The translations under genes were made by a program, and so were the position numbers. Source: an uncultured bacterium (GTDB taxonomy: Bacteria > Bacillota_I > Bacilli_A > RFN20 > CAG-826). Taken from it: 64,000 bases of DNA. The notes beneath the pieces were generated by a model, which saw only the letters and a list, made by a program, of their open reading frames with translations, was not told where the DNA came from and ran no database searches. The stretch spans positions 5,134 to 69,133 of the forward strand of contig CASEYK010000018.1 of NCBI GenBank assembly GCA_949292105.1, read 5' to 3'. Shown one piece after another: positions 5,790 through 26,416 of the stretch. Numbering within the stretch: position 1 is the stretch's first letter; each line of letters starts with the position of its first letter.

Positions 5790-6227
5790 ATGTTTATCAA
5801 CCGATACTATAAAACTCTTGATCAAAAAGGTAGAGTGGTAATTCCTAGCGAAGTTAGGGAAGAACTCGGAAGTCCTTTATACGCAATGAAAGGATATGAA
5901 GGTTCAATCGCTATTTATCGCGAAAAAGAATTTGAACGCTTGGCCGAAGAGGCTGAAACTCTCCCTTTCAACAAGAAAGATGTCCGTTTATACCTCAGGC
6001 TTAGACTCTCATCAACGTGTCGATTGGAACTTGATTCACTCGGAAGAATTCAACTTCCAACCGCTTTATTGGCCCGCTACAACATTGGAAGAGAAATCGT
6101 CTTATTAGGCATTGGCAATCACCTCGAAATATGGGACCGTCAAGCCTTTGATAAGTATGAAGAAGAATCTGAATCTGTTTTTGACGAAACAGCTGAAAGA
6201 ATTAAAAATTACAAAGACGAACAGTAG
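5790..6227 (+). CDS. mraZ: transcriptional regulator MraZ
   Basis: N-terminus MFINRYYKTLDQKGRVVIP with a duplicated DxxxR-like domain. The start is taken at ATG 5790 (canonical MF... N-terminus) rather than the GTG at 5784 used in the ORF track. Confidence 0.9.
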   Translation: MFINRYYKTLDQKGRVVIPSEVREELGSPLYAMKGYEGSIAIYREKEFERLAEEAETLPFNKKDVRLYLRLRLSSTCRLELDSLGRIQLPTALLARYNIGREIVLLGIGNHLEIWDRQAFDKYEEESESVFDETAERIKNYKDEQ

Positions 6228-6229
6228 AG

Positions 6230-7156
6230 ATGGATAAACACATTCCTGTCTTACTAGACGAAACGATTGAACTTCTCAATGTCAAACCAAATGGTATCTA
6301 CATCGATCTAACGCTCGGTCGAGCCGGTCACGCTAGCGAAATCTTAAAAAGACTTGATAGCGGTATGCTCATCGGTGTGGATCGAGATGAAAAAGCTCTT
6401 ATTGAAAGCAAAACGCGCTTGGAGCAAATATCAGATCATTTCCAACTTGTTCATTCTAACTATTACAACATTGATCACATCCTCGATTCACTGCGGATTG
6501 AAGCAGTGGACGGGGTGCTGATGGATTTAGGTGTTTCATCCCCTCAATTCGATGAAAAAGAGCGAGGATTCTCTTACAGAGAAGATGCTTTGCTCGATAT
6601 GAGGATGGATCAAACGCAAAGCCTAGATGCATCATATATTATCAACAACTATTCGCTTGAAGAGTTAACGCGCATTTTTCGAGATTACGGCGAAGATAAG
6701 TACGCTTATCAAATCGCAAAAAGAATTGTTAAAGAGCGCGAAAATGCTCCAATTAAGACAACATTCCAATTAGTTGACATCATCAAGGCGAGCAAACCAC
6801 AGAAAGAATTGAAAAAAGTCGGTCACCCAGCCAAACAAATTTTTCAAGCACTGCGCATCGCTGTCAACGACGAGCTCAATTCCTTGTCCCAAGCGCTCAA
6901 AATTATTCCCGAAAGATTAAAAAAGCACGGCGGACGACTCGTCATTATCACTTTTCACTCATTGGAAGATCGAATGGTCAAACAAACTTTTAAATCACTA
7001 TGTGAGATTAAAGGCAACCGCGAGGACATTCCTGATGCTCCTCAAAACATTGAATATCGACTTGTTCAGCGCAAACCTATTGTTCCAACTGAACAAGAGC
7101 TGATAGATAACCACCGCGCTAAAAGCGCTAAACTGCGAGCTATTGAAAGGCTTTAA
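6230..7156 (+). CDS. rsmH: 16S rRNA (cytosine1402-N4)-methyltransferase
   Basis: MraW family motifs (IPVLLDE, DLTLGRAGH, DLGVSSPQ, FHSLEDR). Confidence 0.95.
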   Translation: MDKHIPVLLDETIELLNVKPNGIYIDLTLGRAGHASEILKRLDSGMLIGVDRDEKALIESKTRLEQISDHFQLVHSNYYNIDHILDSLRIEAVDGVLMDLGVSSPQFDEKERGFSYREDALLDMRMDQTQSLDASYIINNYSLEELTRIFRDYGEDKYAYQIAKRIVKERENAPIKTTFQLVDIIKASKPQKELKKVGHPAKQIFQALRIAVNDELNSLSQALKIIPERLKKHGGRLVIITFHSLEDRMVKQTFKSLCEIKGNREDIPDAPQNIEYRLVQRKPIVPTEQELIDNHRAKSAKLRAIERL

Positions 7157-18023: not shown

Positions 18024-19782
18024 TAAAGTTAAGGCTCTTATCACCAATCTTAAGCATTTGCCCGGCGTTTATCTAATGCATAACGCGAAAGATGAAATTA
18101 TTTATATTGGCAAAGCCAAAGATTTATATAACCGCGTCAGCCAATATTTTTTAAGACCACAAGCTGGCAAAGTGGCCAAAATGGTTTTTGATGTCGATTA
18201 TTTTGAAACTATTATCACTAAAACTGAAAAAGAAGCACTGATATTAGAGATGAATCTTATTCAGACACATTATCCTAAATACAATATTCTTTTAAAAGAC
18301 GACAGCCATTATCCATATATTGCTCTTCATAAAAAAGGCGATCCGTTCTTGACGATTAAAAGAAATAACAAAGACCGCAATTACGATTATTTTGGTCCTT
18401 TTCCAAGCGGCAAAAGCGCACGAGGAACAATTGAACTTTTAAATAAAATTTTTCCTTTAAGAAAATGCTCTCCTTTAAAAAAGGAACCTTGCTTATATTA
18501 CCATTTAGGGCAATGTTTGGCTCCTTGTATTAAACCCGTCGATAGCAGTGTATATGAAACTATTGTTGAACAAATCAAAAGATTTTTTAAAGGCGATAGC
18601 ACCACAATCAAAAGAGAATATGAGAAAAAAATGCTTGATGCTTCTAGCGAACAAAAATATGAGCTAGCGGCTGAATATAAGAAAATAGTCGATTATATCG
18701 AACATATTAGTGCCGCTCAAAATGTTGAAAGCAACGACCATAAAGATTATGATGTGTTCGCCTATGCTACTCGAGACAATTATCTCGCTTTATCAGTCAT
18801 TGTATATCGCGATGGAATGGTTTTAGGCAAAAATAGTTTCGTTGTCGAACGGTTTGATGAACTAGGCGAACAAGTTCAAGATTTAATACTTCAGTATTAT
18901 CAAAAACATACAACGCCTGTTGAAATTGTCATTAATGATGAAAACGTCATCGCTTTATTAAGCGATTATTTGGATAGCCGAATTGAAAGCGTTACACGTG
19001 GACATCGTTTTGAACTAGTTTCTATGGCGCTCGAAAACGCTCAAAATGCTTTGGATGAATATTATCTAAGCCCGAGAATTGACGAAAATAAAATTGCTCT
19101 TTTGGAAGAACTAGGACAAATATTAAATATTGATACTCCTCTGCGCATTGAACTGTTTGATAATTCCCATTTGCAAGGCTCTAACCCCGTTGGAGCGGTG
19201 GTGACATTTATTAATGGCGAACCAGCCAAGTCGCTATATCGAAAATATCATATTGAGTGGAGCGAAGGAAAAGATGATTTAAAGTCGATGAAAGAAGTTG
19301 TTTGGAGACGCTATAAAAGGATGAAAGAAGAAAATAAAACCTTCCCATCCCTTATTTTGCTCGATGGTGGTCTAAACCAAATCAACGCTGCTAAAGAAGC
19401 CTTGAACGATCTAGATGTCAGCATCCCTATTTATGGACTTTATAAAAATGATAAACACCAAACTGAAGGTATTATCGATGAATATGGACAAAAATATAAA
19501 ATTGAGAATAAATCATTATTTTTCATGTTGACAAGAATGCAAGATGAAGTACATCGATTTGCTATTTCATTTCATCGATCACTAAGAGATAAAAGTTTCA
19601 AAAACTCTATTCTCGATGGTGTTAAAGGTTTGGGTGAAAAAAGAAAAGAAATAATTCTAAGAAATTATCAGGATATTAAAACATTAAAAAACGCCAGTGT
19701 CGAAGAGTTAAAACAATTTTTGCCTGTTGATGTCGCTTTATCTCTTTATCAATCACTTCATAACGATGATGAAAACAATTGA
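18016..19782 (+). CDS. uvrC: excinuclease ABC subunit C
   Basis: GIY-YIG N-terminus (GVYLMHNAKDEIIYIGKAKDL), UvrC and RNase H-like domains and a C-terminal HhH. The start overlaps the end of mutS2 by 8 nt. Confidence 0.95.
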   Translation: MNNKVKALITNLKHLPGVYLMHNAKDEIIYIGKAKDLYNRVSQYFLRPQAGKVAKMVFDVDYFETIITKTEKEALILEMNLIQTHYPKYNILLKDDSHYPYIALHKKGDPFLTIKRNNKDRNYDYFGPFPSGKSARGTIELLNKIFPLRKCSPLKKEPCLYYHLGQCLAPCIKPVDSSVYETIVEQIKRFFKGDSTTIKREYEKKMLDASSEQKYELAAEYKKIVDYIEHISAAQNVESNDHKDYDVFAYATRDNYLALSVIVYRDGMVLGKNSFVVERFDELGEQVQDLILQYYQKHTTPVEIVINDENVIALLSDYLDSRIESVTRGHRFELVSMALENAQNALDEYYLSPRIDENKIALLEELGQILNIDTPLRIELFDNSHLQGSNPVGAVVTFINGEPAKSLYRKYHIEWSEGKDDLKSMKEVVWRRYKRMKEENKTFPSLILLDGGLNQINAAKEALNDLDVSIPIYGLYKNDKHQTEGIIDEYGQKYKIENKSLFFMLTRMQDEVHRFAISFHRSLRDKSFKNSILDGVKGLGEKRKEIILRNYQDIKTLKNASVEELKQFLPVDVALSLYQSLHNDDENN

Positions 19783-19823
19783 AAACATTTTCACACTTGT
19801 TTAATATATTAAATGCTACATAT

Positions 19824-19900
19824 ACCCTCGTAGCTCAGTTGGATAGAGCAACAGCCTTCTAAGCTGTGGGTCAGGCGTTCGAGTCGCCTCGAGGGTGCCA
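19824..19900 (+). tRNA. tRNA-Arg (anticodon UCU)
   Basis: The cloverleaf was folded by hand: acceptor ACCCTCG/CGAGGGT, D-arm GCTC-AGTTGGATA-GAGC, anticodon stem ACAGC/GCTGT with loop CTTCTAA, T-arm AGGCG-TTCGAGT-CGCCT, discriminator G and an encoded CCA. Confidence 0.9.
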
Positions 19901-19915
19901 TTGAAAATACTGAGA

Positions 19916-19940
19916 CAGTCTGTCACGCAGGCTGTTTTTA
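19916..19940 (+). terminator. terminator after tRNA-Arg
   Basis: cagtctg-tcacg-caggctg hairpin followed by ttttta. Confidence 0.5.
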
Positions 19941-19957
19941 TTATCTTAAGATAATAA
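19938..19957. repeat. 20-bp perfect palindrome TTATTATCTTAAGATAATAA
   Basis: Exact reverse-complement symmetry, located between the tRNA terminator and the promoter of the nuclease gene. Confidence 0.8.
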
Positions 19958-19977
19958 TATAGCCAAAATCAACTAAA

Positions 19978-19990
19978 TATTGTCTCACAA
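19978..19990 (+). repeat. 13-bp motif TATTGTCTCACAA, copy A; overlaps the -35 of the nuclease promoter
   Basis: Near-identical copies occur at 21694-21706 and 21736-21748. Confidence 0.7.
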
Positions 19991-20009
19991 AACATAAATG
20001 TTATATAAT
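19980..20009 (+). promoter_or_regulatory. promoter of the restriction-endonuclease-like gene
   Basis: -35 TTGTCT (19980-19985), 18-nt spacer, -10 TATAAT (20004-20009). The ATG at 20016 lies ~7 nt downstream, so the transcript would be leaderless. Confidence 0.45.
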
Positions 20010-20015
20010 ACATTT

Positions 20016-21062
20016 ATGATGGAAAAAACCACAACAGAAAGCATTATCAAATATTTTCACTACCATAAAGGCGAAGTTTTTGAAGTAGATATCCTACATA
20101 AAAGAAAGTTTTCTGATATCAACTATGATTCTTTTAGAAAATTGGTATCCAGAATTTCAAATCGTGGCGAAGAATTAACGCATTTAGGTTTTAGCCTTTA
20201 TTACATCGGAAAAGCAAATGAAATGATGCTAGATGACATTGTCTTTAATTATTTTGTTCAAAAGATTAAAGTTGAACTCAATATTTTAAATTCGCTCATT
20301 GGCTCTAAAAATATCGAAGAAGAATTCAAATCTATCGTTAATCAATATCCTAATGTTTTGGTCGTGGTACCAATTCTTTTAGCAAAAAGAGAAGCTGAAA
20401 TTAAAGTACAAGATGCTGACGGTAGTTATGTTTTTAACTTTGTTAAAATGAACTATACAGTCGACCAATATACTCTTTTCATGAGAAATAGCGGTCTATT
20501 TGATTTATTACAAAACCACATCATTAATAACCTAGTCGATTATGTTTTAGGTATTGAAGTCGGAATGGACACTAACGGAAGAAAAAATAGAACAGGTCAT
20601 GTTATGGAAGACCTAGTTGAATCCTACCTCATTAAAGCTGGTTTAGTTAAGGGCAAGACATATTTCAAAGAAATGTGTGCTTCTGATGTCGAAAAGAAGT
20701 TCCATTTAGATTTATCTAAACTAAGCAACGATGGTAAAGCAGAAAAGAGATTTGACTTTGTGTTTGTTGGTGCATTAGGGACTGTTTTCGCCTGTGAATG
20801 TAATTTCTACAGCGGAGGCGGTTCGAAACTAAACGAAACTGCTAGAAGTTACAAAACATTAACTGAAGAATCAAGAGAAATAACAGGATTCCAATTCGTT
20901 TGGTTTACAGATGGAATTGGCTGGAATAGTGCAAAGCACAATTTGGAAGAAACATTTGACGTGTTGGAAAACCTTTACAACTTGCACGATTTAGAAAATG
21001 AAGCAATTAATCAATTGATTGATCCAACGAGATATTTAAATAAACTTTTAACTAATAAATAA
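20016..21062 (+). CDS. DpnII/MboI-family type II restriction endonuclease homolog with a ~55-aa N-terminal extension and no adjacent methyltransferase
   Basis: Motifs LNILNSLIGSKNI, GIEVGMDTNGRKNRTGHVMED and CNFYSGGGSKLNETARSYK, recognised from memory as the DpnII family (Pfam PF04556 type). The ATG at 19998 used in the ORF track lies inside the promoter spacer and is rejected. Confidence 0.5.
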   Translation: MMEKTTTESIIKYFHYHKGEVFEVDILHKRKFSDINYDSFRKLVSRISNRGEELTHLGFSLYYIGKANEMMLDDIVFNYFVQKIKVELNILNSLIGSKNIEEEFKSIVNQYPNVLVVVPILLAKREAEIKVQDADGSYVFNFVKMNYTVDQYTLFMRNSGLFDLLQNHIINNLVDYVLGIEVGMDTNGRKNRTGHVMEDLVESYLIKAGLVKGKTYFKEMCASDVEKKFHLDLSKLSNDGKAEKRFDFVFVGALGTVFACECNFYSGGGSKLNETARSYKTLTEESREITGFQFVWFTDGIGWNSAKHNLEETFDVLENLYNLHDLENEAINQLIDPTRYLNKLLTNK

Positions 21063-21073
21063 CGGAGGCTTGT

Positions 21074-21673
21074 ATGGCACTTATAAAATGTCCTGAATGT
21101 GGGAAAGATGTGAGCACTGCTGCAGATGTATGTCCGCACTGTGGCTACCCCATTAAAAAAGAATCTAAGGTTAAACCTGAAGAAAAACCAAACGAGAACT
21201 ATCCAAAGCCAAAAAATACCGCTTGGGTTGAAAAATGGAAAAGCAAGGCAAAGGCTACTAGATGGAAATGGACGCTTTTGTTTCTTGGTTCCTTAGTTCT
21301 TCTTGCGGTCTTTATAATTTTATTATGTACAGATAAAGAAGTTACTTCTTATGGTACATACTCAAAAACCGTTTGGATAATTATGGTTGGTATTTCATCA
21401 TTTATTGCATTTATTATGTTTACGCTATGGCTGGTTGCTTTAATTACAATCAGAGTTCGCGCTAGACAATATGATGGTTATACAGTTCTAGTATATGTCA
21501 GCTTTAATCATTGCTTAGTAGTTGAAGATGAAGTTCAAGATTCAGGATTTGTTAATAGATTTCTTTATGGCCAACTTCCTAACAAAAAGCAAGTATGGGT
21601 TAACATATCTGCATGGGATGGATCTGTTAAAATGGGCATCGGTAAAGAAGGCGACGAAAAGAATCTAATTTAG
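21074..21673 (+). CDS. zinc-ribbon transmembrane protein (CPxCG...CPHCG, K-rich linker, 2 TM helices, ~75-aa C-terminal domain)
   Basis: GGAGG RBS and a 12-nt gap after the nuclease gene indicate translational coupling. Confidence 0.6.
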   Translation: MALIKCPECGKDVSTAADVCPHCGYPIKKESKVKPEEKPNENYPKPKNTAWVEKWKSKAKATRWKWTLLFLGSLVLLAVFIILLCTDKEVTSYGTYSKTVWIIMVGISSFIAFIMFTLWLVALITIRVRARQYDGYTVLVYVSFNHCLVVEDEVQDSGFVNRFLYGQLPNKKQVWVNISAWDGSVKMGIGKEGDEKNLI

Positions 21674-21693
21674 TAAAAATGCCAAAAACATTG

Positions 21694-21706
21694 TATTATC
21701 TCACAT
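21694..21706 (+). repeat. 13-bp motif TATTATCTCACAT, copy B
   Basis: Direct repeat of copy A, differing by 1-2 mismatches. Confidence 0.7.
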
Positions 21707-21735
21707 AAAATAATTTATTTTTGAAGAAAGATTGG

Positions 21736-21748
21736 TATTATCTCACAA
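21736..21748 (+). repeat. 13-bp motif TATTATCTCACAA, copy C
   Basis: Direct repeat located 42 bp after copy B. Confidence 0.7.
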
Positions 21749-21773
21749 ATTTAAAGACATTTCATGTAAATAA

Positions 21774-21798
21774 CCATTTCGTGCCGAAGTGGTTTTTT
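21774..21798 (+). terminator. rho-independent terminator of the nuclease/zinc-ribbon operon
   Basis: ccatttcg-tgc-cgaagtgg hairpin followed by tttttt. Confidence 0.55.
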
Positions 21799-21939
21799 AA
21801 AAACATAATGCTTGGCTCTTTTTATTACGTTGTTGCACTTATTTCAGTTAATACCTTATGTCTTTAAATTAGCCAATGGAATTACGATTGAAACCAAAAA
21901 ACTTAACCAAGTAATATTAAATTAAGTGAGGCTCTAAAT

Positions 21940-22347
21940 ATGGATGAAATAAAATGTCCTAAATGCGGAAAAGTATTAACAGATAATGAAAAAGAGAAAA
22001 AAATTTGTCAAGAATGTGGTTGTTTGTTTGAAATTATTGATTCTAAAAAAGGGAAAAAGTCTGAAGCCGTTAGCGCCATCATTAAAGATTATAGAAAAAT
22101 AAATTACAAATCTTGGATTAAGTTCTATATTTTCTTCTTATTCTTGTGGTCAATCTTAACTATCTTTGGAGTGTTACAAGGCTATGTCCACACATCAAAT
22201 CCATGGAATTGGATTATCTTGGTTGTAGGAGTGGTAGTTTACATTATTGTGTTTATCTTAATTCAATTTCAAATAAATGTTATAAGAGATATTTATATGT
22301 TAAAAATTAAAGTTGAAAAATTAGAAAATAAGAATGACAACGAATAA
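21940..22347 (+). CDS. zinc-ribbon (CPKCG...CQECG) two-TM membrane protein
   Basis: GAGG RBS. Same architecture as 21074..21673 but without the C-terminal domain. Confidence 0.55.
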   Translation: MDEIKCPKCGKVLTDNEKEKKICQECGCLFEIIDSKKGKKSEAVSAIIKDYRKINYKSWIKFYIFFLFLWSILTIFGVLQGYVHTSNPWNWIILVVGVVVYIIVFILIQFQINVIRDIYMLKIKVEKLENKNDNE

Positions 22348-22475
22348 TCATGCAAGAGTGTGAAGTTGTAGAAACAAGGAATTCTAAAGATGCTAACTAA
22401 TAAAACATTCAAATAAAAACATTAAACAAGTAACTCAAAAGTCTTTTCAAAGACCAAATTACTATTGTTAACTTA

Positions 22476-22700
22476 ATGTTGGAAATAATTTGGAAGATGA
22501 TAGCCTTGTATCCAGAAATAGGACAATATCTCCCGGCACCAGACATGGATCAAGTTTTAAGCGGGAAGACGAACAATCCTTTCTATGTTCTTTGCATTCA
22601 TATTATTGGGATACATTGTTCAAGAATCATCTTTTTAGATGATATTAAAAGAGTAAAACTAGAAAACAGCACTGACTATCAAAAAGAATTGATGGAATAA
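22476..22700 (+). CDS. hypothetical 74-aa ORF, possibly a gene remnant
   Basis: Isolated ORF in an AT-rich intergenic stretch with no recognisable motifs and a weak ribosome-binding site. Confidence 0.2.
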   Translation: MLEIIWKMIALYPEIGQYLPAPDMDQVLSGKTNNPFYVLCIHIIGIHCSRIIFLDDIKRVKLENSTDYQKELME

Positions 22701-22973
22701 ATATTATAAGTTTAATCAACAAGCATTATCAAATTTTAAAAGCTACGGAAAATAAAAAGAGCACTGAGAATTTTGAATGTTATTATAAAACTTTTAGTTA
22801 TTAATTTGACTAATTTTATTTAGAAAGCAATATATACAATAGTATTACAACGCATCAAATAAGCAGCAATTTTTTGTAGTATCAAATGTTTTTATACAAT
22901 TGCTTGGCAAATATCTGTAATCGTGAAAACATAATGCACATTTAGTTAATAAAATTAAGGATGCATAATAATG

Positions 22974-23024
22974 TTATCTCCAAAAAAATGTTATATTTCT
23001 TTAAATTTATCTCCAAAAAAATGT
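22974..23024 (+). repeat. two perfect 18-bp direct repeats TTATCTCCAAAAAAATGT (22974-22991 and 23007-23024) upstream of the ATPase gene
   Basis: Exact duplication 33 bp apart. The repeats sit inside a possible 43-codon upstream ORF (22971..23102) that has an LSPKKC repeat. Confidence 0.7.
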
Positions 23025-23082
23025 AAAATATTGTATGAAAACTTCACAAATGTTAAGATAAAAGTGATTAATGAGGCGATGT

Positions 23083-24381
23083 ATGGAAAGAAAAATATAT
23101 GATAAGCTCTTAAACTGGAAAAAATCATTACATAGAAAACCTTTAGTGTTACAAGGCGCTAGACAAGTTGGAAAAACTTATATAGTTAATCTGTTTGGGC
23201 AAAAAGAATATGAAAACTATGTTTATTGCAATTTCGAAAAAGAACCTATTTTAGAAGATTTTTTTAACGAGCTTAATCCAAATAAAATTATTAGAAATCT
23301 CAGTATTTATAAGCATAAAGAAATTATTTCAAACCATACCTTACTAATTTTTGATGAAATTCAAGCATCACCAAAAGCTTTAAATTCTCTGAAATATTTT
23401 AATGAAGAAGCCAAAGAATATCATATCATTGCTTTGGGATCTCTATTGGGTGTATCTCTAAATAGAGAAAATTCCTCTTTTCCAGTTGGACAAGTCGAGA
23501 TGATGACAATGTATCCGATGGATTTTGAAGAATTTTTAATTGCGGTTGGTAATGATACATCTAAACTGAGTTTAGAAATTAAAAATGCCTATAAAAATGA
23601 TACTGCTTTGCCTGCTGGTCTTCATGAGTTAGCTATTTCACTATACAAGAAGTATTTGTATGTTGGCGGAATGCCAGAAGCTGTAAAAGTTTTTGTTGAG
23701 ACGAACAATCCTGAAATGGTTAGAATTGTTCAACTCGCAATTCTCGATGCCTATTTTAGCGACATGAGCAAGTATAATAGAACGACTGAAATACCCAAAA
23801 CAAAATTAGTTTTTGAAAATATATCGACACAGCTTTCTAAGGAAAACAAAAAATTTCAATATAAATATTTAAAAAGCGGAGCGAGGTCATCACAGTATGC
23901 CGAAGCGATAAAGTGGGTTTGTAGTGCTGGCATTGCAAATCAATTATTTAAATTAGAAAAAGTAACTTTACCACTTGAATCAAATAAATCTAATGATGAT
24001 TTTAAATTTTATATGAGCGATGTTGGTTTATTATGTGCTAGTCAAAATATACGCATTGAAGATATTGAATTAGACCTCAATGATTCATCTTTTCGTGGTG
24101 GATTATGTGAAAACTATGTCTTCAATCAATTAACATTTGCTGGGCTCAAACCATATTACTGGACTAGTAATTTTGATGCCGAAATAGATTTTATCATTAG
24201 GTTAGGAATGGATATCATTCCCATTGAAGTTAAGTCTGGAGAAAATACTCGATCGAAGAGTTTGAATGTGTATATGAAGAGTATGAACCCGCCATACGCA
24301 ATTAGAATATCTCAAAAGAATTTTGGATTCGAAAATAATATTAAGTCCGTTCCATTGTATGCCGTTTATTGTATTAAATAA
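23083..24381 (+). CDS. COG1373-type AAA+ ATPase (AAA_14 N-domain plus DUF4143 nuclease-like C-domain)
   Basis: Walker A GARQVGKT, Walker B LLIFDEIQ and the C-terminal DFIIRLG...IPIEVKSG motif. The start is taken at ATG 23083 with an upstream GAGG. Confidence 0.7.
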   Translation: MERKIYDKLLNWKKSLHRKPLVLQGARQVGKTYIVNLFGQKEYENYVYCNFEKEPILEDFFNELNPNKIIRNLSIYKHKEIISNHTLLIFDEIQASPKALNSLKYFNEEAKEYHIIALGSLLGVSLNRENSSFPVGQVEMMTMYPMDFEEFLIAVGNDTSKLSLEIKNAYKNDTALPAGLHELAISLYKKYLYVGGMPEAVKVFVETNNPEMVRIVQLAILDAYFSDMSKYNRTTEIPKTKLVFENISTQLSKENKKFQYKYLKSGARSSQYAEAIKWVCSAGIANQLFKLEKVTLPLESNKSNDDFKFYMSDVGLLCASQNIRIEDIELDLNDSSFRGGLCENYVFNQLTFAGLKPYYWTSNFDAEIDFIIRLGMDIIPIEVKSGENTRSKSLNVYMKSMNPPYAIRISQKNFGFENNIKSVPLYAVYCIK

Positions 24382-24549
24382 CATCAGTTGCAGTTTGAAA
24401 AATAATTGACAAAATAATAAAGTGAAACGCAATTATTAAAACATAAGTTGTTTGAATAGTTAAAAAATTACAAAAATATGATAGTAAAATATTCCTTCAA
24501 AAATATAAAATATCTTATAGATATTAAAAATGGATAACGGGAGTTAGTT

Positions 24550-25440
24550 ATGAATGTTATTAGAAAAAATCTAGGCTATGCATTATTTACAGCTTTTTGT
24601 GTCTTGTTTGCGGTTTATTTTATTTATGATTTAACACAAATCAGTGATGCGTTAGATGTCGAAGGTTCAAATTTACCGATGATTTTATTGATTATCGACA
24701 TTCTTGCGTGCTTGATAATGATTTCAATATCAGCTGATGGATTATTAAGAACAAATAAAGAAGATGAAAGAAAAATATTAATTTGTTGTGTCTTTCTCGG
24801 GCTTGTTTATTCATTCGCAAATGCGTTAGGAACAATCGTGACAATGACTGAGATGCAAAATCTTTATAATAATGTGGGTATTCAAATTCATTGGCCAGCT
24901 GAAACTATCATGACATTAATATTTTTGATTTTTGGTTTTGTTGCGTTATTGTTCGGGGCGATATTGAATTATGAGAATAACCTAAAAATGAAAAAAGGAT
25001 TTATTATTGCAGGAATTGGTTGTATTTTTATCGCGCTTATCATTGCACTAGCAAACAGTGGCTCATCTCAAACAACTTTTCAAGTTATAATAGGTGTTTT
25101 TCAAATAATATTAATGATTTGTCTTGGCACTTATGTATTGTTTATCAATTGTTTTAACAATAATGCAGATGAAAAAATCAAAATATGTTCATTCTGTGGC
25201 TCCGAAGTTCAATCTGATAAACTGTACTGTGATAAATGTGGGCATAAAATGGATGCAGTCACAACAGCAGTAAAAAGCAAAAACAACAATTACTCAAATA
25301 AACAAAAGATATCCACATCTAAACTAGATCAAGAAGAAGCAGAAGACTCTTTGAGAAGGTTGAAACAAATGCTTGATGAGAAAATAATTACTGAAGAAGA
25401 ATATAATGAAAAGCGAAAGAAATATATCGATAGGCTTTAA
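24550..25440 (+). CDS. polytopic membrane protein (~6 TM) with a zinc ribbon (CSFCG...CDKCG) and a C-terminal SHOCT-like tail
   Basis: The hydrophobic N-terminal two thirds predict about six TM helices. The C-terminus reads LRRLKQMLDEKIITEEEYNEKRKKYI. Confidence 0.5.
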   Translation: MNVIRKNLGYALFTAFCVLFAVYFIYDLTQISDALDVEGSNLPMILLIIDILACLIMISISADGLLRTNKEDERKILICCVFLGLVYSFANALGTIVTMTEMQNLYNNVGIQIHWPAETIMTLIFLIFGFVALLFGAILNYENNLKMKKGFIIAGIGCIFIALIIALANSGSSQTTFQVIIGVFQIILMICLGTYVLFINCFNNNADEKIKICSFCGSEVQSDKLYCDKCGHKMDAVTTAVKSKNNNYSNKQKISTSKLDQEEAEDSLRRLKQMLDEKIITEEEYNEKRKKYIDRL

Positions 25441-25525
25441 TAATGTTTGTGAAATATTGATTAAATTATAAATAGTTGAGATTACTATAAAACTACTAAA
25501 AATCTACCAAATGCATTGATATTAT

Positions 25526-26416
25526 ATGGACAAAATTGATACTTTACTAGAAAAAGGCAACTACGAGTTAGTTCTTAAAATAACGAAAAATAGCGATGAT
25601 ATTAAATATCTTTTTTATCGTCTTGCCGCTTTTGTCGCACTTGAAAAATATGAAGACGCCCTAGCCCTCATCAATAGCAAAAAATCAATCATGGAGCAAG
25701 ATTTGCGTTTGCTCATTAAAACGCATATCAATATTTTATGTGTACTAGAAAGATTTGATGAAGCATACGATGCAGCGAAAGATTACGCTGAACTTCCATA
25801 TCATTCGCAAGAAGTGGAAGAAATTCTTAAAGAATTACCACATCGTATTAGAAATGAAGAAAAAAAAGTTTTAGGCAAAAAGAAACTGAGCGAAGAAGAA
25901 ATGCGTAAAATTCTTTTAAGCGAACAAAATGATGAAAGATTGCTCGGAATTCTTCAAAAAATCGATCGAATTGAAAAATATCTTCCCGAATTAGAGAATT
26001 TGCTTGTTGCATATCCGCATTTATCGATTCGCGTCTTTATACTTTTAACACTAGTTAAAGTTAAGGTTAATGGACCGATTAAATTTAAAAATAGTCGTGA
26101 CGAGATTCAAGAAGTGTGTCCGCAAGTCTTACATGAGCCTTTCTCGTCGACCATCGATAGAGAAATTTCCAACCGCATTAATAAATACGACGATCCGACG
26201 GTGGCAAGCGTTGCTCATCAAATATTTTCTTCTTATGTCCTCTTTGTTTATCCTGAGTATATCACAAGTGATATTGATATTTTATATCAATCTCTTATCT
26301 TACTATCTAAAAAATACCTAGCAATCAATCTTAATAATACTGAACAAGAACTGTCAAACAATCCAGCGATTAGCGAATGCATATCATCGCTTGAAAAAGC
26401 ATTAAAAAATATCTAA
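25526..26416 (+). CDS. hypothetical alpha-helical (TPR-like) protein
   Basis: 296-aa ORF with no recognisable catalytic motifs. Confidence 0.35.
   Translation: MDKIDTLLEKGNYELVLKITKNSDDIKYLFYRLAAFVALEKYEDALALINSKKSIMEQDLRLLIKTHINILCVLERFDEAYDAAKDYAELPYHSQEVEEILKELPHRIRNEEKKVLGKKKLSEEEMRKILLSEQNDERLLGILQKIDRIEKYLPELENLLVAYPHLSIRVFILLTLVKVKVNGPIKFKNSRDEIQEVCPQVLHEPFSSTIDREISNRINKYDDPTVASVAHQIFSSYVLFVYPEYITSDIDILYQSLILLSKKYLAINLNNTEQELSNNPAISECISSLEKALKNI

Follow-up and report, generated by a model that had tools for sequence, protein, structure and literature searches.

Several described integrative elements offer parallels to the locus analysed here. The winged helix-turn-helix protein RdfS of ICEMlSymR7A binds both attP and the -35/-10 region of its own promoter (PMC11963761), and in KplE1, a tRNA-associated prophage, the first gene has a promoter that attL overlaps and autoregulates (PMC2951348). 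Here, we describe a small element beside a tRNA-Arg gene in a 64,000-nucleotide stretch of contig CASEYK010000018.1 from an uncultured bacterium, called the window below. An earlier note on this DNA had drawn attention to three direct copies of a 13-mer that bracket a nuclease gene and a zinc-ribbon gene. From sequence comparisons, we lean towards reading positions 19901-21759 as the decayed remnant of a small integrative element, with the motif cores in its two end modules as candidate binding sites, most probably those of a winged-helix protein that these elements encode. The repeats are subterminal sites of an integrative element, a feature of an ordinary kind, and the element family to which they belong is undescribed and, in the window, decayed.

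The likeness to the IntS/RdfS system of ICEMlSymR7A (PMC11963761) and to the IntS/TorI system of KplE1 (PMC2951348) is one of layout. In all three cases short motifs extend over about 100 bp on either side of the crossover, one end lies at a tRNA gene, the sites on the attL side overlap the promoter of the first gene, and the protein proposed to bind them is of the winged-helix type and would act both as a regulator and as a recombination factor. The window element differs from both in lacking a tyrosine integrase gene and a duplication of the tRNA 3' end. Moreover, its first gene is that of a 230-aa winged-helix protein of an unannotated family, and not that of an integrase.

Two further kinds of genome organization bear comparison. 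Cis-mobilizable elements (CIMEs) and the tandem accretion of integrative elements have reportedly been documented in Firmicutes, by Pavlovic et al. in 2004 and Bellanger et al. in 2011. Like a CIME, the window element keeps both of its end (att) modules and has lost its recombination genes. In a related locus, L055 (all of the loci used for comparison, given here by L numbers, are metagenomic contigs, several of them very short), a right end runs straight into a left end, an arrangement that tandem accretion or a circular form would produce. The described CIMEs derive from integrative and conjugative elements with tyrosine or large serine integrases and have longer flanking att repeats, which sets them apart from the window element. 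The nuclease gene recalls the DpnII cassette dpnM-dpnA-dpnB of Streptococcus pneumoniae, said to have been characterized by Lacks et al. in 1986. What the window shares with that cassette is the 3' 268 codons, which encode PF04556; the methylase genes and about 32 codons are missing, and a foreign winged helix has been fused to the remainder.

The AbiEi antitoxins of type IV toxin-antitoxin systems autoregulate via repeats in their own promoter, and resemble the window protein in having an N-terminal winged helix as well as repeats that overlap their own promoter (PMC7319586, PMC3985639). However, there is no AbiEii nucleotidyltransferase partner here, the corresponding downstream gene in the related locus L056 is of the Xre-type helix-turn-helix (HTH) class, and no DUF1814 gene lies nearby. 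In addition, AbiEi operators are inverted repeats inside one promoter, whereas the sites considered here are split between two element ends. The putative mobile forms of restriction-modification (R-M) systems treated by Furuta, Abe and Kobayashi (2010, PMC2853133) have counterparts here both in the carriage of R-M cargo on small insertion units and in the local rearrangements at the locus.

None of this overturns current ideas, and its value lies mainly in annotation and in a lead to an uncharacterized winged-helix family and integration mechanism. The repeat has become a concrete map of an integrative element, with exact ends, end modules and a candidate binding protein. Small elements at tRNA-Arg genes of uncultured, low-GC, gut-type bacteria are seen to carry R-M genes, as a DpnII type II remnant in the window and as a type III system in L056. 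The locus also illustrates routes by which such elements decay, namely in-frame gene fusion, microhomology deletion and the insertion of what looks like an insertion sequence (IS). Finally, an apparently undecayed DpnII domain that has no methylase and sits on a DNA-binding domain is a curiosity for R-M biology.

End modules and boundaries

The features of the element and its immediate borders are as follows (+, forward strand).

19824-19900, +: tRNA-Arg(TCT) gene (ARAGORN; Rfam tRNA 66.5 bits), with its encoded CCA at 19898-19900 as the left insertion boundary
19901-20015, +: left-end (LE) module, non-coding, 115 bp (blastn, global and four-way alignment)
19912-19938, +: terminator-like hairpin, 12-bp stem and T-run (terminator scan; -14.4 kcal/mol, z = -4.1)
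19938-19957, no strand: TTATTATCTTAAGATAATAA, a perfect 20-bp palindrome formed by an inverted pair of TATTATCT cores
19978-19990, +: 13-mer copy 1, TATTGTCTCACAA, overlapping the -35 hexamer
20004-20009, +: -10 hexamer TATAAT (promoter scan)
20016-20254, +: 5' part of a chimeric open reading frame (ORF), encoding a winged-helix domain of ~80 aa, the N-terminus of the ~230-aa P0241 family
20255-21062, +: 3' part of the chimeric ORF, dpnB (DpnII-family GATC restriction endonuclease; Pfam PF04556) without its first ~32 codons
21074-21673, +: zinc-ribbon membrane protein gene, 199 aa (Pfam zinc-ribbon matches), cargo beside the right end
21680-21759, +: right-end (RE) module, consisting of CCAAAAA, GTATTAT-N6, 42 bp to TTGGTATTAT-N6, AATTT and terminal AAAGACA
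21694-21706, +: 13-mer copy 2, TATTATCTCACAT, inner right-end site
21736-21748, +: 13-mer copy 3, TATTATCTCACAA, outer right-end site, 11 bp from the element end
21772-21798, +: terminator hairpin beyond the right boundary, at a distance of 12 nt (-12.7 kcal/mol, z = -2.9)

The earlier note held that three such copies go beyond chance, and this is borne out. With both strands scanned, the TATTRTCTCACAW pattern has exactly three matches in the window, all on the + strand, against a chance expectation of 0.01, and none of 100 dinucleotide-preserving shuffles reached at least three. Nor does the objection that the motif is a common AT-rich word hold within the 64 kb, since there are no other matches and the TCTCACA heptamer occurs only eight times on both strands, three of these being the 13-mer copies themselves. 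With two mismatches allowed, no excess appears elsewhere in the window (12 matches, 10.1 expected).

The placement of the copies was also correctly described. Copy 1 covers the -35 hexamer TTGTCT (19980-19985) of a sigma-70-like promoter that scores 10/12 and has its -10 TATAAT at 20004-20009; copies 2 and 3 lie 42 bp apart just 3' of the zinc-ribbon stop codon (21673), between it and the terminator hairpin at 21772-21798. Two additional TATTATCT 8-nt cores, missed in the earlier note, build the perfect palindrome at 19938-19957, whose half-sites are the first eight bases of the 13-mer. Five TATTRTCT cores fall within the 196 bp of the end modules, compared to 11 in the whole window on both strands. 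Measured from the junctions, the cores lie at +38 to +84 in the left end and at -66 and -24 in the right end.

Do these repeats belong to the genes they flank? The earlier note had suggested looking for other copies beside similar cassettes, and none turned up beside the homologs compared. The 13-mer is absent beside the zinc-ribbon homologs in L047, L051-L054 and L065/L066, which rejects it as a fixed flank feature of that gene, and does not accompany the canonical DpnII cassettes examined, which rejects it as part of those cassettes. A 42-bp tandem duplication as the source of copies 2 and 3 was likewise rejected, with only 13-16 nt in common and unrelated spacers.

The sites belong instead to two modules that recur as wholes. 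The LE is 87% identical to L055 678-793, compared to merely 65% for the coding DNA next to it (blastn, global alignment), and an nhmmer search of 828 kb with an LE profile gave matches in loci of the window species and in L055-L057 only. Its hairpin folds alike in L055 (z = -4.1 at both loci), with compensatory changes such as G-C to A-U. This hairpin, resembling an intrinsic terminator, is an insulator at the left end, and termination of tRNA-Arg(TCT) is now supplied by it. An Rfam scan of 19700-23200 at E <= 1 found no family besides tRNA, and folding of the 3'UTR gave nothing significant beyond the terminator (z about -1). The palindrome, a candidate dimer-binding site as judged from its symmetry, is kept in L055-L057 with one change. 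In these loci the counterpart of copy 1 reads AAATTGTCTCAGAA, giving an LE consensus over the -35 of ATTGTCTCA(C/G)A, so that the left-end tail CTCA(C/G)A is kept across elements. Further downstream, the AAACATAAATGTTATATAATACATTTATG stretch of the -10/start region is identical in L055 and L057. Because the ATG at 20016 begins 7 nt past TATAAT without a Shine-Dalgarno sequence, an arrangement kept in L055-L057 (L055 782-796), the mRNA of the winged-helix ORF is probably leaderless.

The LE adjoins different left flanks at the identical nucleotide: tRNA-Arg(TCT) in the window and in L056, tRNA-Arg(CCG) in L057, and an RE in L055. The first 28 nt of L056 are the 3' end of the same tRNA-Arg(TCT), and L057 starts with the 3' part of tRNA-Arg(CCG), assigned via the complete gene in L065.

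Alignment of the REs of the window, L056 and L055 reveals common GTATTAT cores, the 42-bp spacing, and a terminal AATTT/G-AAAGACA. In L055, the sequence 5' of the LE consists of GGTATTATTCGGGT and, 42 bp on, GGTATTATTTGGGT, TATTG and AAAGACA, which reproduces copies 2 and 3 in spacing and in distance to AAAGACA. The far end of L056, right after the last cargo gene, reads CCAAAAATTG-GTATTATTCCTAT and, 42 bp on, TTGGTATTATTCGGGA, AATTT and AAAGACA|TAGTAAC. Overall, the window RE is 60% identical to that of L055, compared to 51 +/- 2.7% for shuffles, and the DNA past AAAGACA|T is unrelated among the three loci. L056 holds the tRNA|LE junction, the cargo and the RE on a single contig of ~6.2 kb, with the LE at nt 29 and the end of the RE at nt 6243.

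Three left and three right junctions, with unrelated DNA past each, fix the boundaries. The left one, CCA|T, lies at 19900/19901, 77 bp to the left of copy 1; the right one, AAAGACA|T, lies at 21759/21760, 11 bp to the right of copy 3. By these LE/RE criteria the window element spans 1859 bp, 19901-21759. The proposal that the repeats delimit a unit is therefore half right: there is an inserted unit, and the copies sit in its end modules, but its boundaries are outside the repeats. The view of the copies as att-like or target-duplication remnants fails on the same distances and on the sharing of only CAT(T) between the junctions. The idea of an att-like bracket was right in spirit and wrong in detail.

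What did the site look like before insertion? The tRNA-Arg terminators of L047, a related species, and of L065 start 11 nt past the tRNA gene, and the hairpin after the L047 tRNA-Arg(TCT), AACCAC...GTGGTTTTT, is similar to that at 21772-21798. The latter is probably, to judge from its sequence, the original tRNA-Arg terminator displaced by the insertion, and a reconstructed empty site of CCA, 12 nt and the hairpin, which looks like the L047 and L065 units, would be an ordinary tRNA gene with its terminator. The sequence predicted for the empty site is GGTGCCATTTCATGTAAATAACC, and that predicted for the circle or tandem junction is TTTAAAGACATTGAAAATACTGAGACAG. Inspection by eye of the reconstructed RE|LE junction for dyad symmetry found none that was convincing. 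When genome contigs were scanned with UvrC, only Lachnospiraceae UvrC loci at no more than 39% identity were found, and no orthologous loci.

The winged-helix protein and the chimeric gene

The 80 codons 5' of position 20255 are homologous to the N-terminus of proteins of 212-230 aa (50% identity to P0241, E = 2.7e-16, phmmer). AlphaFold (AF2) prediction from a 24-sequence alignment yields a helix-strand-helix-helix-strand-strand-helix winged helix with a mean confidence score (pLDDT) of 87.7, and the best Foldseek matches in the PDB are winged-helix domains (Zalpha, GntR, PadR and Rpa2-WH; probability up to 0.94, E >= 0.16). In such domains it is usually the third helix that recognizes DNA; the one predicted here, at residues 37-49, carries NYDSFRKxxSR, nearly identical between the window protein and P0241. 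A profile of the full-length family gave no informative C-terminal domain match in PDB and Pfam, and a single-sequence AF2 model of the whole chimera was unusable (pLDDT 31).

From residue 87 onward, the ORF matches PF04556 (E = 3e-92) over profile positions 29-277 only; positions 1-28 are missing and replaced. Its closest relatives, of ~300 aa and 85-94% identical, cover the C-terminal 77% of the ORF and sit in canonical dpnM-dpnA-dpnB operons (L020-L027), and the nearest dpnB homologs belong to metagenome-assembled genomes of Acholeplasmatales, Erysipelotrichaceae and Izemoplasmatales. Nucleotide homology to canonical dpnB opens at 20255 in all four comparisons, 32 codons into dpnB, with 1 nt of microhomology at the junction. 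Because the N-terminal and DpnII parts match two unrelated gene families, the ORF is an in-frame chimera, and the claim that the repeats enclose exactly a two-gene operon cassette is contradicted by the mixed origin of its nuclease gene. No dpnM or dpnA homolog was detected by tblastn in the window. The 268-codon DpnII part cannot be called a pseudogene, because it shows no excess of changes at conserved columns (one change at columns conserved to at least 95%, compared to a mean of 1.2 in 116 homologs).

Two side observations concern this gene. Contig L060 (4.3 kb, sample ERZ16268256), in which the zinc-ribbon gene is frameshifted (126 + 96 aa), opens at window position 20256, exactly at the fusion point, which hints at a coexisting allele in that sample, perhaps an intact dpnB context. 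Among palindromic tetranucleotides of the window, there is a strong depletion of ACGT, with 18 occurrences against 82.6 expected (ratio 0.22), and a moderate one of GATC, with 149 against 305.7 expected (ratio 0.49), a pattern that suggests past or present restriction pressure.

L055 encodes P0241, a full-length winged-helix relative, and L056 and L057 share another relative, P0284. As cargo L056 has, in addition to the winged-helix gene, genes for an Xre-type HTH protein and a DNA-invertase-like serine recombinase, as well as a type III mod + res pair; the winged-helix gene is the sole gene common to the window element and L056-type elements. In L056 798-1925 the winged-helix gene overlaps the 182-aa Xre-type HTH gene by 41 nt, and the serine recombinase gene (phrog_125, E = 2e-48) is convergent, beside the mod/res pair; this gene group could be a phase-variation or mobility module. 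In the window, there is no recombinase gene at 19901-21759, and a tblastn search with the L056 serine recombinase gave no match. Viral contigs scanned with the palindrome, hairpin and promoter strings gave no match, metagenome contigs scanned with the palindrome string gave a single chance match inside an ORF (L064), and a tblastn search with P0241 of plasmid and phage collections gave none.

Candidate binders and competing explanations

Most likely, the motifs are bound by the winged-helix protein of the element, by its recombinase or by both; we infer binding from their position and conservation. We propose the winged-helix protein as the binder because its gene is the only one shared, abuts the LE, and encodes a nearly identical predicted recognition helix, which matches the conservation of the ATTGTCTCA and palindrome sites. 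This is the most economical reading, with binding by a recombinase as its main rival.

The events can be pictured as follows. An element would have entered the chromosome behind the CCA of tRNA-Arg(TCT), ahead of the tRNA terminator. The LE of the family carries, in order, a terminator hairpin, the 20-bp palindrome, a TATTGTCT site over the -35, the -10 and the start of a leaderless winged-helix gene; the RE carries two GTATTAT-N6 sites 42 bp apart, the outer one 11 bp from the terminal AAAGACA. The winged-helix protein may bind the palindrome as a dimer and, from there and from copy 1, act as a repressor of its own promoter. It may also bind the RE pair, marking or bridging the two ends in the manner of recombination directionality factors or arm-type binders. 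What remains in the window is a relic, in which the winged-helix gene is shorter by its C-terminal 150 codons, owing to in-frame fusion to a 5'-truncated dpnB, and in which both DpnII methylase genes and any recombinase gene are missing.

The earlier note had offered an operator for a shared regulator that binds TCTCACA. The operator half of that idea is plausible, as copy 1 lies over the -35 of a gene with a predicted winged-helix domain and the palindrome is 23 bp further upstream. TCTCACA as the recognized part does not stand, being the portion least conserved between elements: as the six bases past the core the window has CTCACA, L055 has TYGGGT, and the two L056 sites have TCCTAT and TCGGGA. 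Judged by these alignments, the conserved core of the motif is (G)TATTRTYT, and the CTCACA tail is lineage-specific. Since the N6 tails vary between elements, the full 13-mer identity of the window copies may partly be due to recent conversion and not to selection.

Several observations weigh against a mobile element whose ends are recognized by the winged-helix protein. The evidence for mobility comes entirely from metagenomic contigs that are few and short. In contrast to classical tRNA islands, the tRNA 3' end is not duplicated, the junctions sharing only CATT (window) or CATA (L056). Among contigs with the right-flank 135-aa gene, neither an unoccupied tRNA-Arg|terminator allele nor a circular junction of the window element was found. 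The only recombinase encoded by L056, also present in L057, is of the DNA-invertase-like small serine type. The N6 tail past GTATTAT varies from element to element, and the two L056 sites do not agree in it either. Curated annotation is lacking for the winged-helix family, which has no counterpart in NCBIfam or PHROGs, and its Pfam matches to AbiEi_4/DUF6088 are below threshold only (AbiEi_4 at E = 0.0025-0.02 in three of seven family members, with no AbiEi_4 match for the window protein or P0241).

A different protein could account for the same sites. If the motifs were arm-type sites of the missing recombinase, used in an integration/excision synapse, the winged-helix protein would not bind them at all. 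The geometry suits this idea, with sites that flank the inferred crossover 24 and 66 bp inside the RE and, within the LE, at ~38-56 bp for the palindrome and 77 bp for copy 1, a scale like that of the arm-type sites in the ~280-bp attP of ICEMlSymR7A with its five P sites (PMC11963761). The spacing and the distance to the end are kept in three elements, and a serine recombinase gene is present in L056 and L057. However, no element seen has a heterobivalent tyrosine integrase, and it is the winged-helix gene and not the recombinase gene that is conserved along with the end modules. Moreover, the recombinase present is invertase-like, and recombinases of that class are not known to use arm-type sites. 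Considering both sides, we regard this explanation as unlikely. A likeness of TGTGAGATAATA to a gamma-delta/Tn3 resolvase half-site was set aside, as the CTCACA tail is not kept in the elements that carry the serine recombinase.

Perhaps, alternatively, the repeats do nothing now: they may be functionless relics of which only the GTATTAT core was ever functional, their 12/13 identity having come about by local duplication or gene conversion while the mosaic locus was being assembled by rearrangement. The locus is indeed heavily rearranged, with a chimeric ORF, a deletion allele, an IS-like insertion allele and frameshifted genes in some strains, and the N6 tails are not kept between elements. 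Yet the flanks of the three copies have no similarity, so that segmental duplication was not the source, and site position, spacing and core are kept across elements that are ~35% divergent in the adjacent coding DNA. We find it hard to reconcile decay of this sort with such conservation and give the idea little weight.

Still less probable is a role as promoter elements. On the minus strand, TGTGAGATAAT resembles a TRTGn-extended -10 that would drive antisense RNA into the operon; read on the plus strand, copy 3 contains TGGTATTAT, which is also like an extended -10. A promoter scan does mark 21765-21737 (-) with a TG-extended GATAAT, TRTGNGATAAT occurs in the window only at copies 2 and 3, and the outer RE site TTGGTATTAT is kept in all three REs. 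But the TGTGAGA part on the minus strand is not kept in the L055 and L056 REs, a plus-strand transcript from copy 3 would hit a terminator within ~50 nt whether the element is integrated or joined, and a promoter role leaves the conserved 42-bp pair and the palindrome unexplained.

Finally, it is difficult to see how the 13-mers could be target-site duplications or an att core from the insertion of a cassette, with excision between them, and we give this next to no credence: although they are direct repeats that bracket the two genes, the three left and three right junctions place the boundaries outside them, at 19900/19901 and 21759/21760, the repeats are part of modules that travel with the element, two copies occur at one end, and the natural deletion allele described below uses other repeats and keeps copy 1.

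Beyond recognition of the sites by the winged-helix protein, a wider generalization is conceivable, if doubtful at this stage: these loci might represent an undescribed family of small defence-gene carriers that insert precisely after the CCA of tRNA-Arg genes without duplication, bring their own replacement terminator and have TATTRTYT sites recognized by a new winged-helix protein. The mobility function may reside in that protein or in an L056-type invertase-like small serine recombinase. More speculative is the notion that the in-frame winged-helix::DpnII fusion works as a nuclease held at the end sites of its own element.

Alleles and neighbouring island DNA

Contigs of the same species (>99.4% identical) form two classes, the shorter of which lacks 2682 bp. 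The breakpoints are two copies of a 14-bp repeat spaced by the same 2682 bp.

20039-20052, +: left copy of the 14-bp repeat AAGCATTATCAAAT, one deletion breakpoint
22721-22734, +: right copy of AAGCATTATCAAAT, the other deletion breakpoint

The deleted allele, present in L008 and L012-L014, joins 20052 to 22735 via AAGCATTATCAAAT; in L012, 5901-6223 corresponds to window 19733-20056 and 6207-6600 to window 22721-23114. It retains the tRNA and the promoter along with copy 1 and the opening 12 codons, and lacks copies 2 and 3. The short allele is thus a microhomology deletion of the long one and not the product of excision at the 13-mers. This was the only excision-like polymorphism observed, and an allele missing exactly the inter-13-mer segment, which the earlier note had proposed to look for, did not appear among the same-species contigs examined. 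Among long contigs reached via tig, about six have the long allele and five the short. Both alleles occur together in single samples, as indicated by short "bubble" contigs; L006, for example, starts at 19967, k-1 before the breakpoint.

A third allele was found in L016 (1-99, sample ERZ16268189), in which an unrelated 99 nt stands in place of the sequence to the left of 22766. On the reverse strand these 99 nt start with TGAGAGG... and lead into the start of an ORF (MKYSWEYKLECVNKHKN); the sequence looks like an IS element end.

The element lies in a low-GC stretch that runs from the tRNA to tig (19900-26400; 27-32% compared to 36-43% elsewhere). The genes 5' of tRNA-Arg(TCT) are mutS2 and uvrC, and those of the low-GC stretch include several zinc-ribbon/SHOCT membrane proteins and an AAA_14/DUF4143 ATPase. 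The DNA to the right of the element is further island DNA, possibly from earlier accretions.

Homologs of the zinc-ribbon gene, at 35-74% identity, occur in unrelated contexts, two of them near tRNA-Arg genes. At the nucleotide level the gene is 74-76% identical to L047 5000-5565 and L065 2743-3341, compared to just 57% for UvrC there (protein), and these two homologs are again near tRNA-Arg, TCT in L047 and CCG in L065. These identities suggest that the zinc-ribbon gene moved horizontally between tRNA-Arg-linked islands. Within the window, the 5' coding segments at 21083-21107 (199-aa gene) and 21949-21973 (135-aa gene) are alike at 22 of 25 nt, and on this ground the two genes are taken to be paralogs. 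The 135-aa gene is shortened to 111 aa in some strains (L002, L015).

Two other tandem repeats occur in these islands. Between the stop codon of the zinc-ribbon homolog and the terminator, L065 3365-3424 and L066 757-816 contain an unrelated tandem repeat of 30 bp, with AAGG(G)TGGGTGC at its end. In the window, a 33-bp tandem repeat (TAATGTTATCTCCAAAAAAATGTTATAT / TAAATTTATCTCCAAAAAAATGTAAAAT) lies at 22969-23029, just 5' of the AAA_14/DUF4143 ATPase gene, and has TTATCTC in common with the 13-mer.

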